From the IMG/VR virus record IMGVR_UViG_3300027974_000025: a stretch of DNA of 10,789 nt. One strand, 5' to 3'. Each line of letters begins with the position of its first letter. The first letter of the stretch is position 1. This stretch comes from a virus (Duplodnaviria; Heunggongvirae; Uroviricota; Caudoviricetes). The notes beneath the pieces were generated by a model. It saw nothing but the letters and a program-made list of their open reading frames with translations. It was not told the DNA's origin and did no database searches. The translations under genes and the position numbers were made by a program. Shown one piece after another: positions 1-7,895 of the stretch.

Positions 1-819
1 TACAAGGATTCAGGAGACGTAAGTCAGTATTTAGGAGTTTATATTCCTATTCTACGTCCTTATTGCTTAATGAGATATTTCCAGGACAATCCTGATATGG
101 TCACCAAAGCAGTGTTTTACTGTGACTGTGACGTAATCTTTACAGATAAATTTGATGTTGACAAGTTTAAAGATGATGATGTAAACTACTTGTCTGATAC
201 AAACAGCTATATCAATGCTTCATATTTTGATAGTAAATTAAGAGATGTCTTATTAGATAAGGTGGAAGAATACCAAACTAGAGATGTCTTAGCTGAGCTT
301 ACAAGCTTAGTGGGTATAACAAGAGAGATAGCTGAAGCTAACAATGATCACTCAGGAGGAGCTCAATATTTCCTTAAGAACATAGACGCTAACTTCTGGA
401 AGAAGGTGATGAATGATTGTGTACTTATTCGTACATATCTTCAGAACATAAACAAAGAGTTCTTTAAAGATGAGAACGCAGGGTTCCAAAGCTGGTGTGC
501 AGATATGTGGGCTGTGTTATGGAACATTTGGCTTAGAGAACAAGAAGCAAAGAACATTCCTGAAATGGAATTCTGTTGGTCTTCAGATCCTATAGAGAAG
601 CTTGATAGAACAACTATATTACATAACGCAGGTATTACAGGACAAAGCAGTATGGGATATCCTGCTTTCTATAAAGGAGCATATCACACTGGTAAAGATC
701 CTTTTCTAGATACACACGTACTAAAAGTGCTTAGTGATGAGACTTCTAAAAAATATGCCACTTATTACTACACTAGACAACTAACAGAAATAAAAAATAA
801 ATATAACCTTAACTATTAA
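1..819 (+). CDS. GT-A fold glycosyltransferase, 5'-truncated, with motifs resembling GT95/GT96 (HPAT/SERGT1-like) protein O-glycosyltransferases
   Basis: The frame is open from base 1 (YKDSGDVSQYLGVYIPILRPYCL precedes the tracked Met at 70), so the true start lies outside the window. DxD motif in VFYCDCDVIF after a hydrophobic strand. YIPILRPY, SWCADMWAV and ILHNAG resemble remembered GT95/96 segments. Confidence 0.7.
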   Translation, partial: YKDSGDVSQYLGVYIPILRPYCLMRYFQDNPDMVTKAVFYCDCDVIFTDKFDVDKFKDDDVNYLSDTNSYINASYFDSKLRDVLLDKVEEYQTRDVLAELTSLVGITREIAEANNDHSGGAQYFLKNIDANFWKKVMNDCVLIRTYLQNINKEFFKDENAGFQSWCADMWAVLWNIWLREQEAKNIPEMEFCWSSDPIEKLDRTTILHNAGITGQSSMGYPAFYKGAYHTGKDPFLDTHVLKVLSDETSKKYATYYYTRQLTEIKNKYNLNY

Positions 820-836
820 CCTAATTAAACAAAATT

Positions 837-1340
837 ATGGGAAGCAATAAAAATTTAAAAGCTTATGTTCGCTACGATGGTAGTGGCAGAGTAGTTCCAG
901 GTAGTTTAATACTACGTAGAAACAAACCAAAAGTGGGTAACTTTCAGCAAGTACAGGGCTATGAATGTAATAGCGGTGGTACATCTTATCGAGTTGTAGC
1001 AACTGCTTCAGGTGCTGTATCAAGTGTTATCACTTACAGATCTGGTGTTGACAACAGTACACAAACTGTAAATTTAGTTGGTACTAACTTATTAGTGGCT
1101 ACTATTTGTGCTGTAACTGGTTCTGTGTCTGCTACAAATGCTGTTGGAACTACAACAGTTATTACAGCAGGAGCTGGTTGTTCATGTTCTGCTTCAGATC
1201 CTGCAGTGAGCTTTAGTAATACAACTACTACCACTACATCATCTACTAGTACAACAACCACTACATCATCTACTAGTACAACAACTACAACAACAACTAG
1301 ACCTGTTACTACTACAACAACAACAACTAGTGGTGGATAA
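837..1340 (+). CDS. Putative virion/surface protein: N-terminal module, beta-rich Cys-containing domain, Thr/Ser mucin-like tail
   Basis: A-rich leader then ATG; ends in tandem TAA TAA. aa 7-39 align without gaps to aa 10-42 of the 3198 ORF. aa 45-128 are V/T/S/A/G-rich, with Cys44, 91, 115 and 117. aa 129-165 are almost all Thr/Ser. No signal peptide. Confidence 0.75.
   Translation: MGSNKNLKAYVRYDGSGRVVPGSLILRRNKPKVGNFQQVQGYECNSGGTSYRVVATASGAVSSVITYRSGVDNSTQTVNLVGTNLLVATICAVTGSVSATNAVGTTTVITAGAGCSCSASDPAVSFSNTTTTTTSSTSTTTTTSSTSTTTTTTTRPVTTTTTTTSGG
1221..1330 (+). repeat. Coding tandem repeat: two perfect 27-bp units plus ACA/ACT trinucleotide runs
   Basis: ACCACTACATCATCTACTAGTACAACA at 1230-1256 and 1257-1283 (each encodes TTTSSTSTT). 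ACTACAACAACAACTAG at 1284-1300 recurs at 1311-1330 with one extra ACA. Confidence 0.95.
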
Positions 1341-2102: not shown

Positions 2103-2381
2103 ATGTCAGAGATTATCAATTTTGAAGAAGTTCAACAAGAACCTCAAACTCCTAAGTTTGATCCAACTAAAAAGTACACATGGGAAAAAGATACCCAGTT
2201 TGTATTAGATGGTGGACAATTTGGAATGTTATTGAACGCACTACGTGCAGTTATTAATACAAAGGAAGCACAAACTATTCTATTAGCTAAACAAGCAGGA
2301 GATGTTCTTGAAGAGGCATTGGCTGCTGCAGTTGAAGTTGGTATAGTAGTAGAGGTTCCTGAAAATAAAGCTAGTTTATAA
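2103..2381 (+). CDS. Hypothetical acidic protein
   Basis: A-rich leader; 92 aa, Glu-rich, helical C-terminal half; first gene after the promoter. Confidence 0.8.
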   Translation: MSEIINFEEVQQEPQTPKFDPTKKYTWEKDTQFVLDGGQFGMLLNALRAVINTKEAQTILLAKQAGDVLEEALAAAVEVGIVVEVPENKASL

Positions 2382-2530
2382 TGGCAAAAGAAATGATTAA
2401 ACGTAAAGATGGCTCTGTTTCACAGCGTGGTCTTTGGGACAATATTAGAGCTGCTAAAGGATCTGGAAAGAAGCCTACAGCTGCTATGTTAAAACAAGAG
2501 AAGAAAATAAAAGCTAAAACTAAAAAATAA
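2381..2530 (+). CDS. Small basic phage protein, 49 aa (not in the ORF track)
   Basis: ATG at 2381 overlaps the upstream TAA, and its TAA at 2528-2530 overlaps the next ATG. Translation: MAKEMIKRKDGSVSQRGLWDNIRAAKGSGKKPTAAMLKQEKKIKAKTKK. It fills the 2382-2529 gap exactly. Confidence 0.9.
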   Translation: MAKEMIKRKDGSVSQRGLWDNIRAAKGSGKKPTAAMLKQEKKIKAKTKK

Positions 2531-2874
2531 TGGCAACTGTAAAAAAAGATAGAATGGGTAGTCTTTCAGGAATGAAAGCTTCTGATAAGCGTGTAGGTCC
2601 TGTTGACCCTCAAGGTGCTTGGACTAAAGTTCAAGAAGCTACCTTAGCAGGTGCTAAAGGCAAAGCTAAGTTAACTATGGATAAAGAACTTGGTGCTACT
2701 AAGATGGCAAAGAATGGACGTTCTGAAAAGCAATTTGGTCTTGATAAGAAGCAAGCAGCTACAAAAGAAGTTAATCCAGCAAGTTTTAGAAAAGCAGCAT
2801 TAAAGCGTGAATCTGAATTAATAGAGAAGCGTAGTGGTGAAATGGCTCCTAAGTTAAAATCTAAAAAGAAATAA
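2530..2874 (+). CDS. Lys-rich basic hypothetical protein
   Basis: TAATG coupling; K/A/G/M-rich; contains KMAKNG and KRVGPVDPQ. Confidence 0.8.
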   Translation: MATVKKDRMGSLSGMKASDKRVGPVDPQGAWTKVQEATLAGAKGKAKLTMDKELGATKMAKNGRSEKQFGLDKKQAATKEVNPASFRKAALKRESELIEKRSGEMAPKLKSKKK

Positions 2875-2875
2875 C

Positions 2876-3196
2876 ATGGCAACAATTCAAAAACCTAAGA
2901 AAGCTGCTCCTAAAATGGTACCAGGTGAAATGACTGGTAAAATGTACAAGAAGTCTGAAATAGATGAGATTGTTAGAAAACAAGCTGCTGAATTAGACAA
3001 GTCTGGTGTATTTGGTAAAGCTGCTATGGCTAAGAAGAAAGCTCCTAAAGCTAAAGATGGTAAATGGATTCAAAAAGCTGTTAACCCTAAACATAAAGGA
3101 TATTGTACACCAATGACCAAAGCTACATGTACTCCTAAGCGTAAAGCTTTAGCTAAGACATTTAAAGCAATGGGCAAAGCTCGTAAAAGTAAATAA
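2876..3196 (+). CDS. Lys-rich basic hypothetical protein
   Basis: One-base spacing to neighbours; KAKDG followed by KWIQKAVNPKHKGYCTPMTKATCTPKRKALAKTFKAM. Confidence 0.8.
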   Translation: MATIQKPKKAAPKMVPGEMTGKMYKKSEIDEIVRKQAAELDKSGVFGKAAMAKKKAPKAKDGKWIQKAVNPKHKGYCTPMTKATCTPKRKALAKTFKAMGKARKSK

Positions 3197-3197
3197 T

Positions 3198-4178
3198 ATG
3201 GCAACAACAAACCCAAATATCCCTTTAAAGCCTTATGCAAGGTTTAACAGAAATGGAGATATAGTTCCAGGAAGCCTTGGTTTATTTAGAGGTGCTCCCA
3301 CTGTTGGTATCTGGAAAGAGATGCAACCTATAGAGTATTTTAATAAAACTACTAAAAGTTATAGTGGAGTGATTAATGCCAAATATCCAAATGCATTATT
3401 AGCTAATAATATTGCTTATAGTTTAGTAAGATTTCTTGATACTTTAGGTGCTGATGCATACAATACTGTTTTGAATTCTACAGTTTGTTCAGATGATGTT
3501 AATGCTTCTGAGTTTGCTAATATATTTAACATAGGTCAAAATCCTCCAGCATTAAATAACTATCTTGGACCATTCATGGGTGGTGGTCTTGCTGGATATC
3601 CTCATACAGGTATATTAGGAGCACAAGCTTGGCAAAGTCACACTACATCAAATAATAATGCAAATGGACCATTATTGTTAATTAACATGCCTCATATAGG
3701 AATTACACAACAAGCTGATCTTGTTGTAGCTAATGATAATGTAGGTAGAATGTTAAGAAGAGGTAAGAGTTCTGCTACAAGTGATAATACATGTGGAGCT
3801 GTTGCTACAGCTATTGCTGATGCAATTACATTAAATGGTGTTGCACCAGTGGCTACAAATGCTCCTTTTGTAAACAATTATCAAAGATATCAACTTGCAT
3901 TAATTGTTTATGGCTCTTATGCTTATTATAATGCTCACACATATTCAGAGAATATGATTCAAGCTACAGAACTTATAAGAGTTGCAAGTTATAACATCTT
4001 ACATAATACAATCATTCCTGCATTAGGATCTGTAAACAATTTATATTTATTTAGTGGTACATTTATTAATGCTGATGATGGTTATTCTGCATTTATTAAT
4101 TTTAATTCATTGGAAGTGAGAACTGGTTCAACTTGGACATCTCTTACAACAAACTTTTCAAATTTTATAAATGGCTAG
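3198..4178 (+). CDS. LCIB-family (theta-type, beta-CA fold) carbonic anhydrase homologue fused to an N-terminal module
   Basis: Family motifs in the right order: YPNAL; NTVLNSTVCSDD (Cys97, Asp99); GPFMGGGLAGYPHTG...SH; LLLINMPHIGI (His166); VGRMLRRG; CGAV (Cys199); LYLFSGTFIN. This is the Cys/His/Cys zinc triad plus Asp and Arg of LCIB/C proteins. Confidence 0.85.
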   Translation: MATTNPNIPLKPYARFNRNGDIVPGSLGLFRGAPTVGIWKEMQPIEYFNKTTKSYSGVINAKYPNALLANNIAYSLVRFLDTLGADAYNTVLNSTVCSDDVNASEFANIFNIGQNPPALNNYLGPFMGGGLAGYPHTGILGAQAWQSHTTSNNNANGPLLLINMPHIGITQQADLVVANDNVGRMLRRGKSSATSDNTCGAVATAIADAITLNGVAPVATNAPFVNNYQRYQLALIVYGSYAYYNAHTYSENMIQATELIRVASYNILHNTIIPALGSVNNLYLFSGTFINADDGYSAFINFNSLEVRTGSTWTSLTTNFSNFING

Positions 4179-4590
4179 TATTAAGAAACCTGGTCCCTAT
4201 AATCCACAGAAAGCTTCTGCTTATGTAGGTAAAGGAGTTCTCAGAAATGGGGACACTCTAACTTCTATCAAAGGTTCTATCACTCCTGTTCCTAATGGTC
4301 ATCTAATTAAAAAAGATGGCACATCATTAAAGAATGGTGGTAAGACAAAAGCTATTGTTAAAGCTGGTGGTCAAACACATAAAGTATTTAAGAAGAAAGT
4401 TGATAAGGGTATAGGTGATAAAGGAGACATAGTTGTAGATCATACAGCTGGTCCTTCTGCAGGTAAATGGGACAAGATTAACCTCACTGAAAAGTCTAAA
4501 GCTAAAACTGTTAAACAAGGTGTTGCTTCTGTTAAGAAATGGCATAGAGAGAACCCTAACTATGGTAAAAAGCCATTAAAAAAGAAGTGA
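4171..4590 (+). CDS. Lys/Gly-rich basic hypothetical protein
   Basis: 8-nt overlap with the upstream gene; several K-x-G motifs; a possibly folded C-terminal part (GDIVVDH...KWDKINLT...KKWHRENP). Confidence 0.8.
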   Translation: MASIKKPGPYNPQKASAYVGKGVLRNGDTLTSIKGSITPVPNGHLIKKDGTSLKNGGKTKAIVKAGGQTHKVFKKKVDKGIGDKGDIVVDHTAGPSAGKWDKINLTEKSKAKTVKQGVASVKKWHRENPNYGKKPLKKK

Positions 4591-5015
4591 TGGACATTAA
4601 AGAATTTGATATGGATAAGTACATCTTACTAATTGGTAAGAATGCTACTGACATATTCAAATACTATAAGGTTAAAGAAATGCATGGGCTAAATCTAAAA
4701 GATGCCCAAGCAGAAGAGGTTGATAAGACAAAAGGTAACGGAGTGTACATCTATGGGCTTACTAATTATGACCCAGCAGATAAAAAGCTTATAGCTAAAG
4801 ATCCTTATAAGCCCTTTTTATTCTTAAACATGGGAACGTTTAAAAAATACAGTGCTGATGAACAGAAGACAGCAATAATGCATGAAACTATGCACATGGC
4901 TCTTCTTCTATACAAATGGGATGCTGAGAAGAAATCAGAAGAGATAGTCACAATGGCTGAGGATGAGGCCAATAAGATTATTAGAAAACTTAAAGGTATT
5001 AAACTTATAAAGTAA
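4590..5015 (+). CDS. Small HExxH (zincin-like) putative metallopeptidase
   Basis: PFLFLN strand, then AIMHETMHMAL and downstream EEIVTMAE. Start is most likely the ATG at 4590 (TGATG overlap) rather than the GTG at 4587. Confidence 0.6.
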   Translation: MDIKEFDMDKYILLIGKNATDIFKYYKVKEMHGLNLKDAQAEEVDKTKGNGVYIYGLTNYDPADKKLIAKDPYKPFLFLNMGTFKKYSADEQKTAIMHETMHMALLLYKWDAEKKSEEIVTMAEDEANKIIRKLKGIKLIK

Positions 5016-5269
5016 TGGCAAAGACTGAAGCTTGGCAACGTAAGGAAGGTAAGAATCCTTCTGGTGGCCTAAATGCAAAAGGTAGGGCTTCCTACAACAG
5101 AGCTAATCCAGGTAAGCCTGGTCTTAAAGCTCCACAACCTGAGGGAGGTTCTAGAAAGAAATCATTCTGTGCTAGGATGAGTGGTATGAAAAAGAAACTA
5201 ACAAGTTCAAAGACTGCTAATGATCCTAACAGTAGAATTAATAAGTCACTTCGTAAATGGAAATGCTAA
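5015..5269 (+). CDS. Conserved basic phage protein (DUF6321-like, from recollection)
   Basis: AWQRKEGKNPSGGLNAKGRASYN...RKKSFCARM...SRINKSLRKWKC is a pattern I recognise from many aquatic phage genomes. TAATG coupling. Confidence 0.75.
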   Translation: MAKTEAWQRKEGKNPSGGLNAKGRASYNRANPGKPGLKAPQPEGGSRKKSFCARMSGMKKKLTSSKTANDPNSRINKSLRKWKC

Positions 5270-5288
5270 CAATTTAAAATTATAAAAA

Positions 5289-5735
5289 ATGGCAAAGATG
5301 AAAAAGGCTCAATCTGGTGATATGGTATCAAAAATAAAATCAGCTGCTAAAAAAGCAGATTCAACTGTTCGTAAAACAGGCATGAACTTTGACAAGAAAA
5401 GTTTTGATTCATTACCTAAAATGAAAACTAAAGCTAAATCTGGTGGAGAATTTGGTATGTTATCAGTGAAAGCTGGTATTGACAAAAACCCTAATCCTAC
5501 ACAAGCAGATAGAATTGCAGGTGCTAAGGGTATGGCTAAGTCTGGTAAGAAAGTTGCTAAGCAAGCTGCTATTGCAATTGCTATGAAGAAAGAAGGTAAA
5601 GTACCTAAGAAGATGATGAAAGCTGGTGGCACTGTATCTATGCAACTTGGTAGTTATGACAGACAAATTGGTAAAAACTACACTGGTAAAGCTAAGATGG
5701 GTAAATCTGTTGGTAAGTGTAAAAATGGTTGCTAA
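5289..5735 (+). CDS. Lys/Met/Ala/Gly-rich basic protein with repeated K-x-G motifs
   Basis: A-rich leader; seven (K/M)x(K/Q)xG motifs; includes KQAAIAIAM and GMLSVKAGIDKNPNPTQADRIAGA segments; ends KCKNGC. Confidence 0.8.
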   Translation: MAKMKKAQSGDMVSKIKSAAKKADSTVRKTGMNFDKKSFDSLPKMKTKAKSGGEFGMLSVKAGIDKNPNPTQADRIAGAKGMAKSGKKVAKQAAIAIAMKKEGKVPKKMMKAGGTVSMQLGSYDRQIGKNYTGKAKMGKSVGKCKNGC

Positions 5736-5941
5736 TGAAATCAGCTAAGGTGAGTGTTAAACAAGCAAAGTCAGTAAAGCCAATGACTGCAGGTAAAGCT
5801 AAAGGATCAGGTACACCAAGACCTGCACCTAAGGTGGCTCCTCCTAAACCAGTTGATGGTAATTATATGAAGGAAGCTGATACAAAGCTTAGATTGAGAA
5901 GTAAGAATTGGCCTATGAAACAAAAGAGATTATCAAAATAA
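5735..5941 (+). CDS. Lys/Pro-rich basic hypothetical protein
   Basis: Start is most likely the ATG at 5735 (TAATG overlap) rather than the TTG at 5729. The stop lies just before the terminator. Confidence 0.75.
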   Translation: MKSAKVSVKQAKSVKPMTAGKAKGSGTPRPAPKVAPPKPVDGNYMKEADTKLRLRSKNWPMKQKRLSK

Positions 5942-5975: not shown

Positions 5976-6509
5976 TTATCTAAGTGCGTTGTAAGTGCTT
6001 AACACTTTAGGAATATAGTTTGAAGTTTTAGATTTGTTGTAACAGTTTTCAGCAAATACACCATCTGCATCCCTTCTATGTATAACAAATCTTTCATCAC
6101 CTACTATTGTTGTATGTACAATGAAGTTGTGACTATCTATGTAGCTTAGTCTAACTTTACTTTGTCTTAATCTAATGCTTCCATCTTTTTCTTCTTGATC
6201 AAAATGAATAAAGTCATTAGTTAAATCTTTAATGTTGTTCCACAGTTCTGGATGTATGATAGTGTCATCGTCATTAAAATAGATGTAACCTTCTGTTACT
6301 AAATCAATTGCTAAATTTCTTTGAGCATTTCCACATACACTACCTGCATCTTTTATACAATAGGCTTCGCATTCAGGAATGCTATCAGGAACAGTGTCTG
6401 AATCAAACACAACAATCCATCTGTAATTTTCTTTAGGTATGTTAATGCTCTCTGCAATTCTATGTAAAAGATGAGGTCTACTACAAGGAGTGATGATGTT
6501 TAAGAACAT
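5976..6509 (-). CDS. Glycosyltransferase, GT2-like (minimal GT-A domain)
   Basis: LNIITPCSRP N-terminal strand, WIVVFD, GNAQRNLAI and YIYFNDDDT are hallmark GT2 motifs. Confidence 0.85.
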   Translation of the reverse strand: MFLNIITPCSRPHLLHRIAESINIPKENYRWIVVFDSDTVPDSIPECEAYCIKDAGSVCGNAQRNLAIDLVTEGYIYFNDDDTIIHPELWNNIKDLTNDFIHFDQEEKDGSIRLRQSKVRLSYIDSHNFIVHTTIVGDERFVIHRRDADGVFAENCYNKSKTSNYIPKVLSTYNALR

Positions 6510-7153
6510 GGTTTGTCGTTTCTATGTAATATTAATAGTTTATCATTGTCCCAACCTGGAGAAAACTTTAAATCATGATTAGCTAAAACAAATGTAGCTG
6601 ATGAAAAGTATTCTTTGATGTGATCTATAGCTTCCATATATCTGTTTTCATCTTCTTTAATGAAGATGTCTTCAATAACAATTGTTCCTCCTGGTTTAAC
6701 ACACTTATAGGCTATGTTTAAAAATCTGATTTGATCTTCAAACACATGCGTTGAATCCTCAATGATGATGTCAAAGAAGTTGGTTTCAGAAAACACAGCT
6801 TTTAAAGACTCTTCACTAGTGATGTCTACATGAATATAGGATGCTCTATCAACCTTGTCATTTATTGCTTTGTCTAATTTGTTTTGGTGATATTCATAGC
6901 CAAACAATAAAGCATTAGGAAAATATTCTCTCCAACATAACATTGAGTTGTTATCTAATATACCCACCTCACCAATTATAAGTTTGTTATAACGTATGTG
7001 TGAGAATATTAAATTATACACAGACGTATAAGCATGTCTATGTAAAGTGGAGTTATTATGATAGGGACACTTGTCTGTAGGATACTTGACAGCAAGTTTA
7101 CACAATTCTGTGTTAGAACTTGTAGAGTCAATAATTAGTTTATTTATCTTCAT
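6500..7153 (-). CDS. Class I SAM-dependent methyltransferase, MycE/sugar O-methyltransferase-like
   Basis: TDK...HAYTSVY...F, IIGEVG (motif I), WREYFPNALLFGYE, FDIIIEDSTH (DDGSH equivalent) and VKPGGTIVIEDI. Confidence 0.85.
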   Translation of the reverse strand: MKINKLIIDSTSSNTELCKLAVKYPTDKCPYHNNSTLHRHAYTSVYNLIFSHIRYNKLIIGEVGILDNNSMLCWREYFPNALLFGYEYHQNKLDKAINDKVDRASYIHVDITSEESLKAVFSETNFFDIIIEDSTHVFEDQIRFLNIAYKCVKPGGTIVIEDIFIKEDENRYMEAIDHIKEYFSSATFVLANHDLKFSPGWDNDKLLILHRNDKPCS

Positions 7154-7895
7154 CTATTTTCTTTTGTAACATTTCTTTATAATCTTTTTCCCAATAAGGA
7201 TTGAGATGAACATTTCCTGTAGGAATTCTTCCCATAGTTCTTTCCATTTCAATGTGATTACTGTGTCTTTGAATAGCATTGAGTTTTCCAGGTTTATCAT
7301 GACCTTGTCCACTCATATGATATCCTCTTCCTCCCCACATATAGAACCAGCTAGCTTCTTCTTTGGGTGGTTTGGCAAACAGTCTACCTCCATACTTATG
7401 TAATGTTTCTATAAACGTCATATCATATCCAGCATTTTCAAGAGGATGTCCCCCTATTGCTTTCCAAGCTGCTTTTCTAAACACAATACCAGAGTTACCT
7501 ATCCAACCAACATTTTCAATACCTGTAATGTGACATAACACTCCTGTCTCCCAATGAAGAATATTAACTTCTTCTGTCATATACTTAGCTACATTCTGTA
7601 AGTGGTTTGGTAGAGCTACGTCATCATCGTCCCATTGACATATAATGTCTCCTTGACATAGTTCTGTAGCATAGTTTTCCTTCTCTCCTATTGTATCAAA
7701 CGTTTTAGGTAAATTAACTATCTTGATTTGAGGATGCTCAAATATAAGAGTTTGTAAGGGATAGTCATTTACTATGATGAGTTCACATCTATCCTTAGGA
7801 TAGTCCTGCTTGAGGAAAGATTCAACACTCTCCTCAAGCGTACTAACTCTTCCATAAGTTATGCACTTACATGATATAAATGGAAGTGGATTCAT
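7140..7895 (-). CDS. Glycosyltransferase family 2
   Basis: ISCKCITYGR, SFLKQDY, ELIIVND, IGEKENYA, ICQWDDDD, GGHPLENAGYD. Confidence 0.9.
   Translation of the reverse strand: MNPLPFISCKCITYGRVSTLEESVESFLKQDYPKDRCELIIVNDYPLQTLIFEHPQIKIVNLPKTFDTIGEKENYATELCQGDIICQWDDDDVALPNHLQNVAKYMTEEVNILHWETGVLCHITGIENVGWIGNSGIVFRKAAWKAIGGHPLENAGYDMTFIETLHKYGGRLFAKPPKEEASWFYMWGGRGYHMSGQGHDKPGKLNAIQRHSNHIEMERTMGRIPTGNVHLNPYWEKDYKEMLQKKIDEDK

Follow-up and report, generated by a model that had tools for sequence, protein, structure and literature searches.

A putative protein O-glycosyltransferase family of tailed phages, with a GT95/GT96-like predicted fold and linkage to poly-threonine proteins

In mycobacteriophages, capsid and tail-tube subunits receive O-glycans at their C-termini through the action of phage-encoded glycosyltransferases, the described cases being Che8 gp108-110, Corndog gp38, and Myrna (Freeman et al. 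2023, Cell Host Microbe, as cited in PMC12619734, PMC11600133, and PMC12363180). These virion glycans shield the particles from antibodies (Freeman 2023, as cited in PMC12363180), and the system of cluster O phages includes an O-methyltransferase. Here we describe a 10,789-nucleotide stretch of viral DNA (the window, meaning the whole stretch analyzed) in which the gene for a predicted phage glycosyltransferase, P0001, directly precedes the gene for P0002, a protein that ends in a tail of nearly pure Thr and Ser. On the basis of fold, synteny, and presence/absence patterns, we propose that the P0001 family is a putative protein O-glycosyltransferase family that starts glycans on the poly-Thr tracts of phage proteins, a reading that we consider probable. 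The most likely arrangement is a phage mucin-type O-glycosylation system with P0001 as its predicted initiator.

Two further groups of enzymes are relevant to this proposal. Plant and green-algal SGT1/SERGT1 of GT96 and HPAT1-3, RDN, PLENTY, and NOD3 of GT95 share with P0001 a GT-A fold with a DxD motif and are its best whole-chain models, and the chemistry that we propose for P0001 is the same, namely transfer of a sugar directly to a hydroxy-amino acid in extended segments rich in Ser/Hyp (hydroxyproline) or Thr. The plant GT95/GT96 enzymes are Golgi type II membrane proteins, whereas P0001 has no membrane anchor; moreover, the proposed acceptor of P0001 is Thr rather than Hyp or Ser, the enzyme belongs to a phage rather than a eukaryote, and its activity is predicted. 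The second group comprises glycogenin, LgtC, and GlyE of GT8, the last from the PsrP serine-rich-repeat pathway, together with UGGT of GT24. Glycogenin glycosylates a protein hydroxyl (Tyr), and GlyE is a cytoplasmic enzyme whose substrate is a glycoprotein with Ser-rich repeats.

The P0001 gene is truncated in the window (1..819, + strand; the C-terminal 272 of 338 residues), where its open reading frame (ORF) is open at the 5' end. The full gene starts 197 nucleotides upstream and is located at L001:2022-3038:- of the source, a 58.7-kilobase IMG/VR viral record, estimated to be about half complete, of which the window is the minus strand. All of the motifs that a prior sequence-only reading had quoted from this ORF (YIPILRPYCLMRYF, VFYCDCDVIF, SWCADMWAV, and ILHNAG) are present. 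The motifs of the phage family are Y80-I-P-x-x-R85-P86, D108-x-D110, W231-x-A-(D/E)-M-(W/Y)-A, and (I/F)-(L/Y/F)-H274; the plant enzymes presumably have Y-x-x-x-N-(R/K)-P, then a DxD some 20 residues further on, W-x-x-E-M-Y-(A/G), and, late in the chain, I-(I/L)-H. Among 70 diverse P0001 homologs, Y80, D108, D110, Y136, Q229, F257, H274, K291, and Y323 are invariant, and the DxD of P0001 itself is D108-C-D110. We infer from these residues, by a presumed residue-level equivalence, that the D-x-D, the later His, the Gln, and the Lys make up a set of the retaining GT-A type. No hydrophobic or transmembrane segment was found in P0001 (maximum KD19 0.72), and the enzyme is therefore expected to be soluble and cytoplasmic.

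By sequence, P0001 belongs to PHROG 4417, a family of unknown function (E 7.7e-49, 167 bits, profile positions 67-287 of 293 with the window fragment as query); to this existing label the present analysis adds the poly-Thr link and the GT95/96-like fold. Pfam yielded no match at E up to 10, GT8 (PF01501) included, NCBIfam yielded none at E up to 0.01, and a sequence search of the PDB with either the single sequence or a 70-sequence profile detected no relative. The family is nonetheless large, with 2099 near-length relatives in a 90%-clustered database and at least 772 clusters at 50% identity, 250 of these clusters with E below 1e-30.

An AlphaFold model of full-length P0001, based on the 70 diverse homologs, had a predicted local distance difference test score (pLDDT) of 97.3 and a predicted template modeling score (pTM) of 0.93, and it displays a GT-A fold with DxD. 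When the model was compared by Foldseek with the Swiss-Prot portion of AlphaFold-DB, ranks 1-9 were all occupied by SGT1/HPAT-family proteins with template modeling (TM) scores by query of 0.49-0.62; for eight of the nine the score was 0.58-0.62, versus 0.44-0.47 for glycogenin models, both sides of each comparison being predicted. The top model was Arabidopsis SGT1, a peptidyl-serine alpha-galactosyltransferase of GT96 (E 2.5e-9, TM 0.59), a Chlamydomonas homolog was also among these ranks, and the GT95 models of HPAT1-3, RDN1/2, PLENTY, and NOD3 gave TM 0.58-0.62 with root-mean-square deviations (rmsd) of 5.1-5.7. Sequence identity between the plant enzymes and P0001 in the structural alignments was 10-15%. 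Among the AlphaFold-DB clusters, the first three were uncharacterized members of the P0001 family itself (TM 0.75-0.84, 24-30% identity), followed by many eukaryotic clusters labeled 'Hydroxyproline O-arabinosyltransferase-like' and then by GT8. The nearest cluster models beyond the family were HPAT-like domains of protists and algae. The bacterial family DUF7164 (Pfam PF23741) also appeared among the cluster matches, as well as in an Atlas feature search of P0001 relatives, and may be a bacterial branch of a P0001/HPAT-like superfamily.

Comparison with solved structures led to a different nearest neighbor. The best match was glycogenin of GT8 (Foldseek E 9e-6; VIA-align Z 14.8, rmsd 3.6 over 230 residues), and further matches were UGGT, the Skp1 alpha-galactosyltransferase (Z 14.3), LgtC (Z 13.8), WbbM, and GlyE (Z 13.2). 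All belong to the retaining GT-A enzymes of GT8/GT24, and several of them (the Skp1 alpha-galactosyltransferase, UGGT, and GlyE) have proteins or glycans bound to proteins as substrates; for glycogenin, LgtC, GlyE, and UGGT the alignments had Z 13-15 and rmsd 3.6-4.1 over 216-248 residues. P0001 has the features of a GT8-type fold, a retaining GT-A architecture with DxD and a C-terminal His, as judged from the glycogenin and LgtC matches and the invariance of D108, D110, and H274, and the DxD and later His are the expected metal ligands in both. It differs from GT8 in lacking a PF01501 match, in having TM scores to GT8 below those for the GT95/GT96 models, and in being about 80 residues longer. 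Because no GT95 or GT96 entry was among the PDB matches, the PDB comparison is unable to separate GT8 from GT95/GT96.

The GT95/GT96-like assignment made by the sequence-only reading was thus upheld at the level of fold, in both the Swiss-Prot models and the AlphaFold-DB clusters, and failed at the level of the sequence family. The Pfam HPAT family (PF23452) did not match P0001 (E up to 10), its 70 diverse homologs (E up to 0.01), or 10 isolate-phage homologs (E up to 10), nor was it found in a six-frame search of the record; for this reason "-like", rather than membership in GT95 or GT96, is the right label. The full-length fold check that had been called for came out in favor of the sequence-only reading, with GT96 and GT95 proteins as the top predicted models; a caveat is that GT8 glycogenin, a result named beforehand as speaking against the assignment, was the best solved structure. 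One Atlas cluster of P0001 relatives has PF23452 in 10% of its members, which is a lead only. Taken at the level that the model supports, P0001 is most likely a DxD-containing GT-A glycosyltransferase of the retaining GT8/GT95/GT96 fold group.

The candidate acceptor P0002 (167 residues; 837..1340, + strand) is encoded immediately downstream. The intergenic distance of 17 base pairs noted earlier is exact, with the P0001 stop codon ending at 819, the P0002 ATG at 837, and an A/T-rich spacer (CCTAATTAAACAAAATT; 820..836, + strand) in between. No terminator-like site was found in 1-2400, so co-transcription of the two genes is likely. The description of the P0002 C-terminus as about 37 residues of almost pure Thr and Ser was likewise accurate: residues 129-165 (1221..1331, + strand) include 34 Thr or Ser among 37 (27 Thr and 7 Ser), are coded mainly by ACA and ACT, and are followed by GG and the stop codon. 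This tract is the proposed array of O-glycosylation sites. Among the 97 non-overlapping ORFs of the record, only P0002, which directly follows the enzyme gene, has at least 10 Thr or Ser residues in a 12-residue stretch. Orthologs of P0002 have 156-173 residues, and the tail, variable in length, is kept in the listed ones. The model of P0002 (pLDDT 67 overall, 77-84 over most of the folded part) consists of an all-beta folded part and a tail predicted to be disordered (pLDDT below 50). Since no structural match to it was detected in the PDB at E up to 0.001, the beta domain is left unnamed. A prediction of the complex of P0001 with the P0002 tail (residues 118-167) and Mn scored 0.02 against a mark of 0.32, which counts neither way.

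As the sequence-only reading had stated, both a signal peptide and a D-(S/T)-x sequon are missing from P0002; there is no hydrophobic signal at the N-terminus, and by inspection its three Asp residues precede Gly, Asn, and Pro. Modification of P0002 by a periplasmic Bacteroidota O-glycosylation system of the host was set aside on these two grounds and because similar tracts also occur in phages of Gram-positive hosts.

The first ~47 residues of P0002 form a conserved module (module A; consensus LKAYVRYDGSGRVV.GSLILR..KPKVG...ECN) that in P0002 spans approximately residues 7-47 (855..977, + strand; LKAYVRYDGSGRVVPGSLILRRNKPKVG...ECN). In related phages it heads one to three small paralogs encoded just downstream of the enzyme, where it is often directly followed by poly-Thr. 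Module A is not an acceptor signal, because it also heads proteins free of Thr tracts, such as the LCIB-like protein encoded at 3198-4178; it is more likely a docking module. A second module (module B; MAIPSRQIGWS...LLWQISKQLE) heads proteins of 50-67 residues that are otherwise entirely poly-Thr and are encoded just upstream of the glycosyltransferase in relatives (L007, L031, L035, L047, and other loci). In the genome to which the window belongs, module B heads the 189-residue P0003, which has no Thr tract and is encoded just upstream of the window (L001 3212-3781, - strand).

Linkage of the enzyme to poly-Thr genes was then counted in two sets of loci, a Ser/Thr (S/T) tract being scored throughout as at least 10 of 12 residues S/T or a run of six or more. 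Set 1 comprised 80 viral loci from the clade to which the window belongs (64-95% identity), and set 2 comprised 80 loci from a short, distant branch of the P0001 family (15 clusters at 60% identity), for which the glycosyltransferase ORFs were located by BLASTP. In the close set, an S/T tract was present in the gene immediately downstream at 56 of 78 loci, in the gene immediately upstream at 44 of 79, and within two genes at 75 of 80, as compared to 16 of 1745 background ORFs. For the distant set, the corresponding values were 0/76 downstream, 52/80 upstream, and 57/80 within two genes, with 25/789 background ORFs, and 12 of its 15 clusters contained at least one locus with an S/T-tract neighbor. 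The synteny of the glycosyltransferase with Thr-rich genes, proposed earlier as a check, is therefore borne out against a background frequency of 1-3% of ORFs, and it spans host phyla. In the distant set (loci L108-L187, from diverse environmental phages), the partner is usually a protein of 350-1650 residues in which a linker of pure S/T connects an N-terminal domain to a C-terminal one that varies and often ends in Cys-rich motifs (e.g. ...CP.CP). By their sequence layout these partners look like fibers, and more specifically like exchangeable receptor-binding fibers on glycosylated stalks.

The association extends to isolate phages. A tblastn search with P0001 identified 77 isolate records, all below 34% identity, whose hosts are mostly Lactobacillus, Enterococcus, Staphylococcus, and Lactococcus, with Clostridium, Arcanobacterium, and one Chryseobacterium phage also represented. 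Judged by the glycosyltransferase, Chryseobacterium phage MA9V-3 is the isolate closest to the clade of the window's phage. The homolog abuts poly-Thr genes in 11 of 11 sampled isolates. It lies directly 3' of the major tail protein gene in phiFL1A, RQ1, TPWB06, and FA88 (the upstream ORF18 of FA88 being taken as the tail protein) and directly 3' of the major capsid protein gene in bIL285, Planchet, 4995_1, and R3.3; the upstream protein of R3.3 is unannotated and aligns with the capsid proteins of Silenus and phiJL-1. All eight of these phages possess C-terminal poly-Thr tails on major capsid or tail proteins, as illustrated by the ends of the phiFL1A tail protein (...NGTTTTTSTTTTTTSSTTTTTTTQASSK), the bIL285 tail protein (...KTTTTTTTTTRHD), and the 4995_1 capsid protein (...GTTTTTTKPTTTTTTTQA), and R3.3 carries such tails on its capsid and tail proteins both. 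The tail protein and the enzyme are gp50 and gp51 in phiFL1A and, in the same order, orf50 and orf45 in Lactococcus prophage bIL285. In Semele, ENFP1, and the Chryseobacterium phage, the neighbors of the homolog have internal or repeated Thr tracts. A near-pure T7-x-x-P-repeat ORF overlaps the 3' end of the tail gene by ~40-50 nucleotides in Staphylococcus phage RQ1 (L086 7232-7934) and Arcanobacterium phage TPWB06 (L089 7164-7926), and from the arrangement of its reading frame it looks like a frameshift-encoded poly-Thr extension of the tail-tube protein that replaces the usual immunoglobulin-like one.

Homologs of the phiFL1A tail protein were found in 76 records with the common end ...(E/Q)(R/N)PGE.(T/A)G(D/E)(Y/F).... 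In the enzyme-bearing phages phiFL1A and R3.3 the tail protein runs on past this conserved end into poly-Thr, whereas it stops at the homologous position, with no Thr run, in six phages that lack the enzyme: Streptococcus prophages Javan47, Javan505, and Javan311, Lactobacillus phages Silenus and phiJL-1, and Bacillus phage 049ML001. The absence of a P0001-family enzyme from these six was established with the family profile on complete records, and four of four positive controls were recovered at E <= 3e-60. Within the genus Coetzeevirus, R3.3 has both the capsid and the tail-protein tails and Silenus and phiJL-1 have neither, the capsid proteins ending ...AIFTAGTSATTTTTTKAPTTTTTSSHA in R3.3 and ...AIFTASPKA and ...AIFTATPKA in Silenus/phiJL-1. 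Because the tails are present with the enzyme and absent without it, even within one genus, enzyme and tails come and go jointly.

The poly-Thr tails of the Gram-positive phages occupy the same positions, the C-termini of capsid and tail-tube proteins, as the glycans of mycobacteriophages. The proposed system is accordingly of one kind with the mycobacteriophage system and differs from it in the enzyme family, in having poly-Thr as the acceptor, and in the close adjacency of the genes. A search of the complete Che8 genome with the P0001 family profile gave no match at E up to 1, and no Mycobacterium phage was among the 77 tblastn records. Che8's capsid protein and tail-tube protein end ...TGS and ...DGS without poly-Thr, and its glycosyltransferase genes are far from the structural genes, at the opposite genome end, whereas the P0001-family gene abuts that of its presumed acceptor. 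Virion glycosylation has been shown experimentally for Che8; the P0001 system is a predicted one.

Other sugar enzymes surround P0001 in the window's phage. A convergent operon upstream of the window, at a distance of 3-9 kilobases (L105 12190-17982, on the record's + strand), encodes a GT9 heptosyltransferase-type protein (Pfam E 1.3e-17), an 885-residue GT4-type protein, a methyltransferase, a GT2 protein, and a 331-residue protein without assignment; an endolysin gene is situated between this operon and the P0001 gene. The window itself encodes a 251-residue GT2-family glycosyltransferase (7140..7895, - strand; Pfam PF00535, E 1.9e-12) and a 177-residue protein with weak similarity to GT2 (5976..6509, - strand; PF00535, E 0.0048, 17.3 bits versus a cut-off of 23.3), which by that similarity is possibly a third glycosyltransferase of the convergent operon. 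Between these two genes is that for a 217-residue S-adenosylmethionine-dependent methyltransferase (6500..7153, - strand; Pfam matches below cut-off, best E 7e-5; PHROG 21658, E 1.3e-12). Distant P0001-like domains occur in fusions with GT2, methyltransferase, and Gly_transf_sug domains, and the window GT2, a likely glycan-extending enzyme of the P0001 pathway, is homologous to the GT2 domains joined to a P0001-like domain in P0200 and P0249 (BLASTP E 1e-13 and 8e-18). P0140, P0167, and P0200 combine a methyltransferase domain with a P0001-like one, but the window methyltransferase was rejected as a Rosetta-stone link of this kind, its similarity to the fused domains being only generic (E 0.06; no alignment). 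It is a possible sugar O-methyltransferase that is tied to P0001 by gene context. The fusions, the homology of the window GT2, and the neighboring sugar-enzyme genes together place P0001 in a multi-enzyme glycan pathway.

Such a pathway raises the question of which enzyme adds the first sugar. P0001 could instead extend a glycan as the GT8 enzymes GlyA-GlyG do on PsrP, with the first sugar supplied by a phage GT9/Aah-TibC-like heptosyltransferase or a host GtfA/GtfB-type pair, and the glycan-acting enzymes among the nearest solved structures (GlyE, LgtC, and the Skp1 glycan alpha-galactosyltransferase, with the Z scores given above) as well as the GT9 gene 3 kilobases upstream in the window's phage are compatible with that role. 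However, in five small Gram-positive phages that carry homolog and tails alike, the homolog was the only glycosyltransferase found beside the tails: no GT2 (PF00535) or GT4-type (PF00534) genes were detected in searches for these two families, for which the controls were positive in 14 of 14 genomes. Because the P0001 family is the minimal partner of the tails in these phages, we take P0001 as the initiating, protein-directed enzyme. The family also pairs with poly-Thr in phages of both Bacillota and Bacteroidota, which have no obvious common host initiator, and its nearest models overall act directly on peptide hydroxyls. We consider a purely extending function of P0001, the main rival reading, unlikely.

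A second alternative, in our judgment improbable, is that the enzyme modifies something other than protein (such as a host envelope polysaccharide, teichoic acid, or the phage DNA), that its adjacency to poly-Thr genes arises from late or structural gene blocks, and that the Thr tracts are simple flexible spacers. The best-known roles of phage glycosyltransferases are in DNA glucosylation and serotype conversion (PMC12619734), fiber proteins commonly carry Thr-rich linkers, and 1-3% of background ORFs have S/T tracts. Against this, the adjacency is immediate and, in the distant set, directional (52/80 at the upstream position versus 0/76 at the downstream one), the tails stand at the ends of their proteins, where there is nothing to join, gains and losses of enzyme and tails coincide within one genus and one tail-protein family, and P0001 has no membrane segment of the sort that a wall- or lipid-linked acceptor might need. 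It is very improbable that the modified tracts belong to non-structural or injected proteins, serving stability or assembly timing with P0002 never in the particle, since the acceptors in isolates are annotated major capsid or tail proteins and those of the distant set are fiber-like, even though the neighbors of P0002 look non-structural (the endolysin upstream, Dps-like and small basic proteins downstream), P0002 resembles no known virion protein, and the capsid protein of the window's phage is tail-less.

Protein O-glycosylation started by P0001 remains the preferred reading, and several points weigh against it. No paper showing sugar on the poly-Thr-tailed proteins was found in a literature search of partial coverage. 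With no Pfam family matching P0001, its link to protein O-glycosyltransferases is one of predicted-structure similarity at TM ~0.6, and LgtC and other GT8 enzymes that act on glycans come almost as close in structure. The GT9 (heptosyltransferase-type) gene of the window's phage could be the initiator instead, and the absence of other glycosyltransferases from the small phages covers two Pfam families only. In 5 of 80 close and 23 of 80 distant loci no S/T-tract gene lies within two genes of the enzyme. Loci of the same clade are related, so that the counts do not represent independent events; counting by cluster and surveying the isolates give a fairer measure. Finally, the major capsid protein of the window's phage has no S/T tail, and P0002, a presumed virion protein, has no match to any known one.

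Our working model takes the following form. P0001 would be a soluble, cytoplasmic, metal-dependent (DxD plus His) GT-A enzyme that moves the first sugar, presumably from a nucleoside diphosphate sugar, to Thr/Ser hydroxyls in poly-Thr tracts of proteins encoded by the phage itself, either ahead of assembly or while it proceeds, and presumably with the anomeric outcome of the retaining fold group. The acceptor in the window's phage would be P0002, with its N-terminal module, beta domain, and 37-residue Thr/Ser tail, presumably carried on the virion; in other phages the acceptors would be the poly-Thr tails of major capsid or tail-tube proteins or the poly-Thr linkers of fiber-like proteins. Products of the nearby GT2, GT4, GT9, and methyltransferase genes would lengthen and methylate the glycan in the window's phage, and the outcome would be a mucin-like glycan brush or a stiffened stalk.

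Directly 3' of P0002 is a gene for a DUF5856/Dps-like protein (1356-1772, + strand; Pfam E 3e-14; PHROG 858, 'starvation-inducible transcriptional regulator'). The LCIB/carbonic-anhydrase-like protein mentioned above has 326 residues (3198..4178, + strand; Pfam PF18599 LCIB_C_CA, E 8e-18), with module A at its start and no poly-Thr; the joining of a carbonic-anhydrase-like domain to a phage module is unusual. Seven small, strongly basic ORFs rich in Lys, Ala, and Gly (49-148 residues) are distributed over 2381-5941 on the + strand, that of the P0001 and P0002 genes, and could by composition encode internal or DNA-binding proteins. The terminase of the phage is closest to those of Leptolyngbya phage Lbo-JY46 (38%) and Cellulophaga phages phi17:2 and phi4:1 (31%) and is also near those of Flavobacterium phages and crAss-like gut phages. 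A Bacteroidota host is likely.

To our knowledge, glycosylation of virions by phage enzymes has been demonstrated for mycobacteriophages only. No published report on the P0001 family, on poly-Thr phage tails, or on HPAT-like phage enzymes was found, which is weak evidence given that coverage of subscription journals was partial. The distribution of the family suggests that the sugar-coating of virions is widespread beyond mycobacteriophages. In its broadest form, the proposal is that the P0001 family, with its at least 772 clusters at 50% identity, initiates mucin-type O-glycosylation in tailed phages of many bacterial phyla as the phage counterpart of GT95/GT96, coating capsids, tail tubes, and fiber stalks by means of portable poly-Thr tags; we regard this generalization as evenly balanced between true and false. 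Several enzyme-bearing phages (of Enterococcus, Lactococcus, and Lacticaseibacillus) are in culture, so the claim is directly testable.

If the proposal is true, PHROG 4417 and more than 2000 database proteins would gain a function and the poly-Thr tails on capsid and tail proteins an explanation. Virion glycosylation would reach phages of Enterococcus, Staphylococcus, Lactococcus, lactobacilli, Clostridium, and Bacteroidota-type hosts as well as abundant freshwater crAss-like phages, through a different enzyme from that of the mycobacteriophage system and with a simple, recognizable acceptor tag. A family of enzymes from prokaryotic viruses would be tied to the glycosyltransferases of plant extensins and peptide hormones, and a T7-x-x-P tag combined with a P0001-family gene would offer a transferable means of glycosylating a protein of choice in the cytoplasm of bacteria. 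Glycan-coated virions would be common among dairy, gut, skin, and freshwater phages, with a bearing on phage stability, on adherence to mucus, and on recognition by antibodies in phage therapy.

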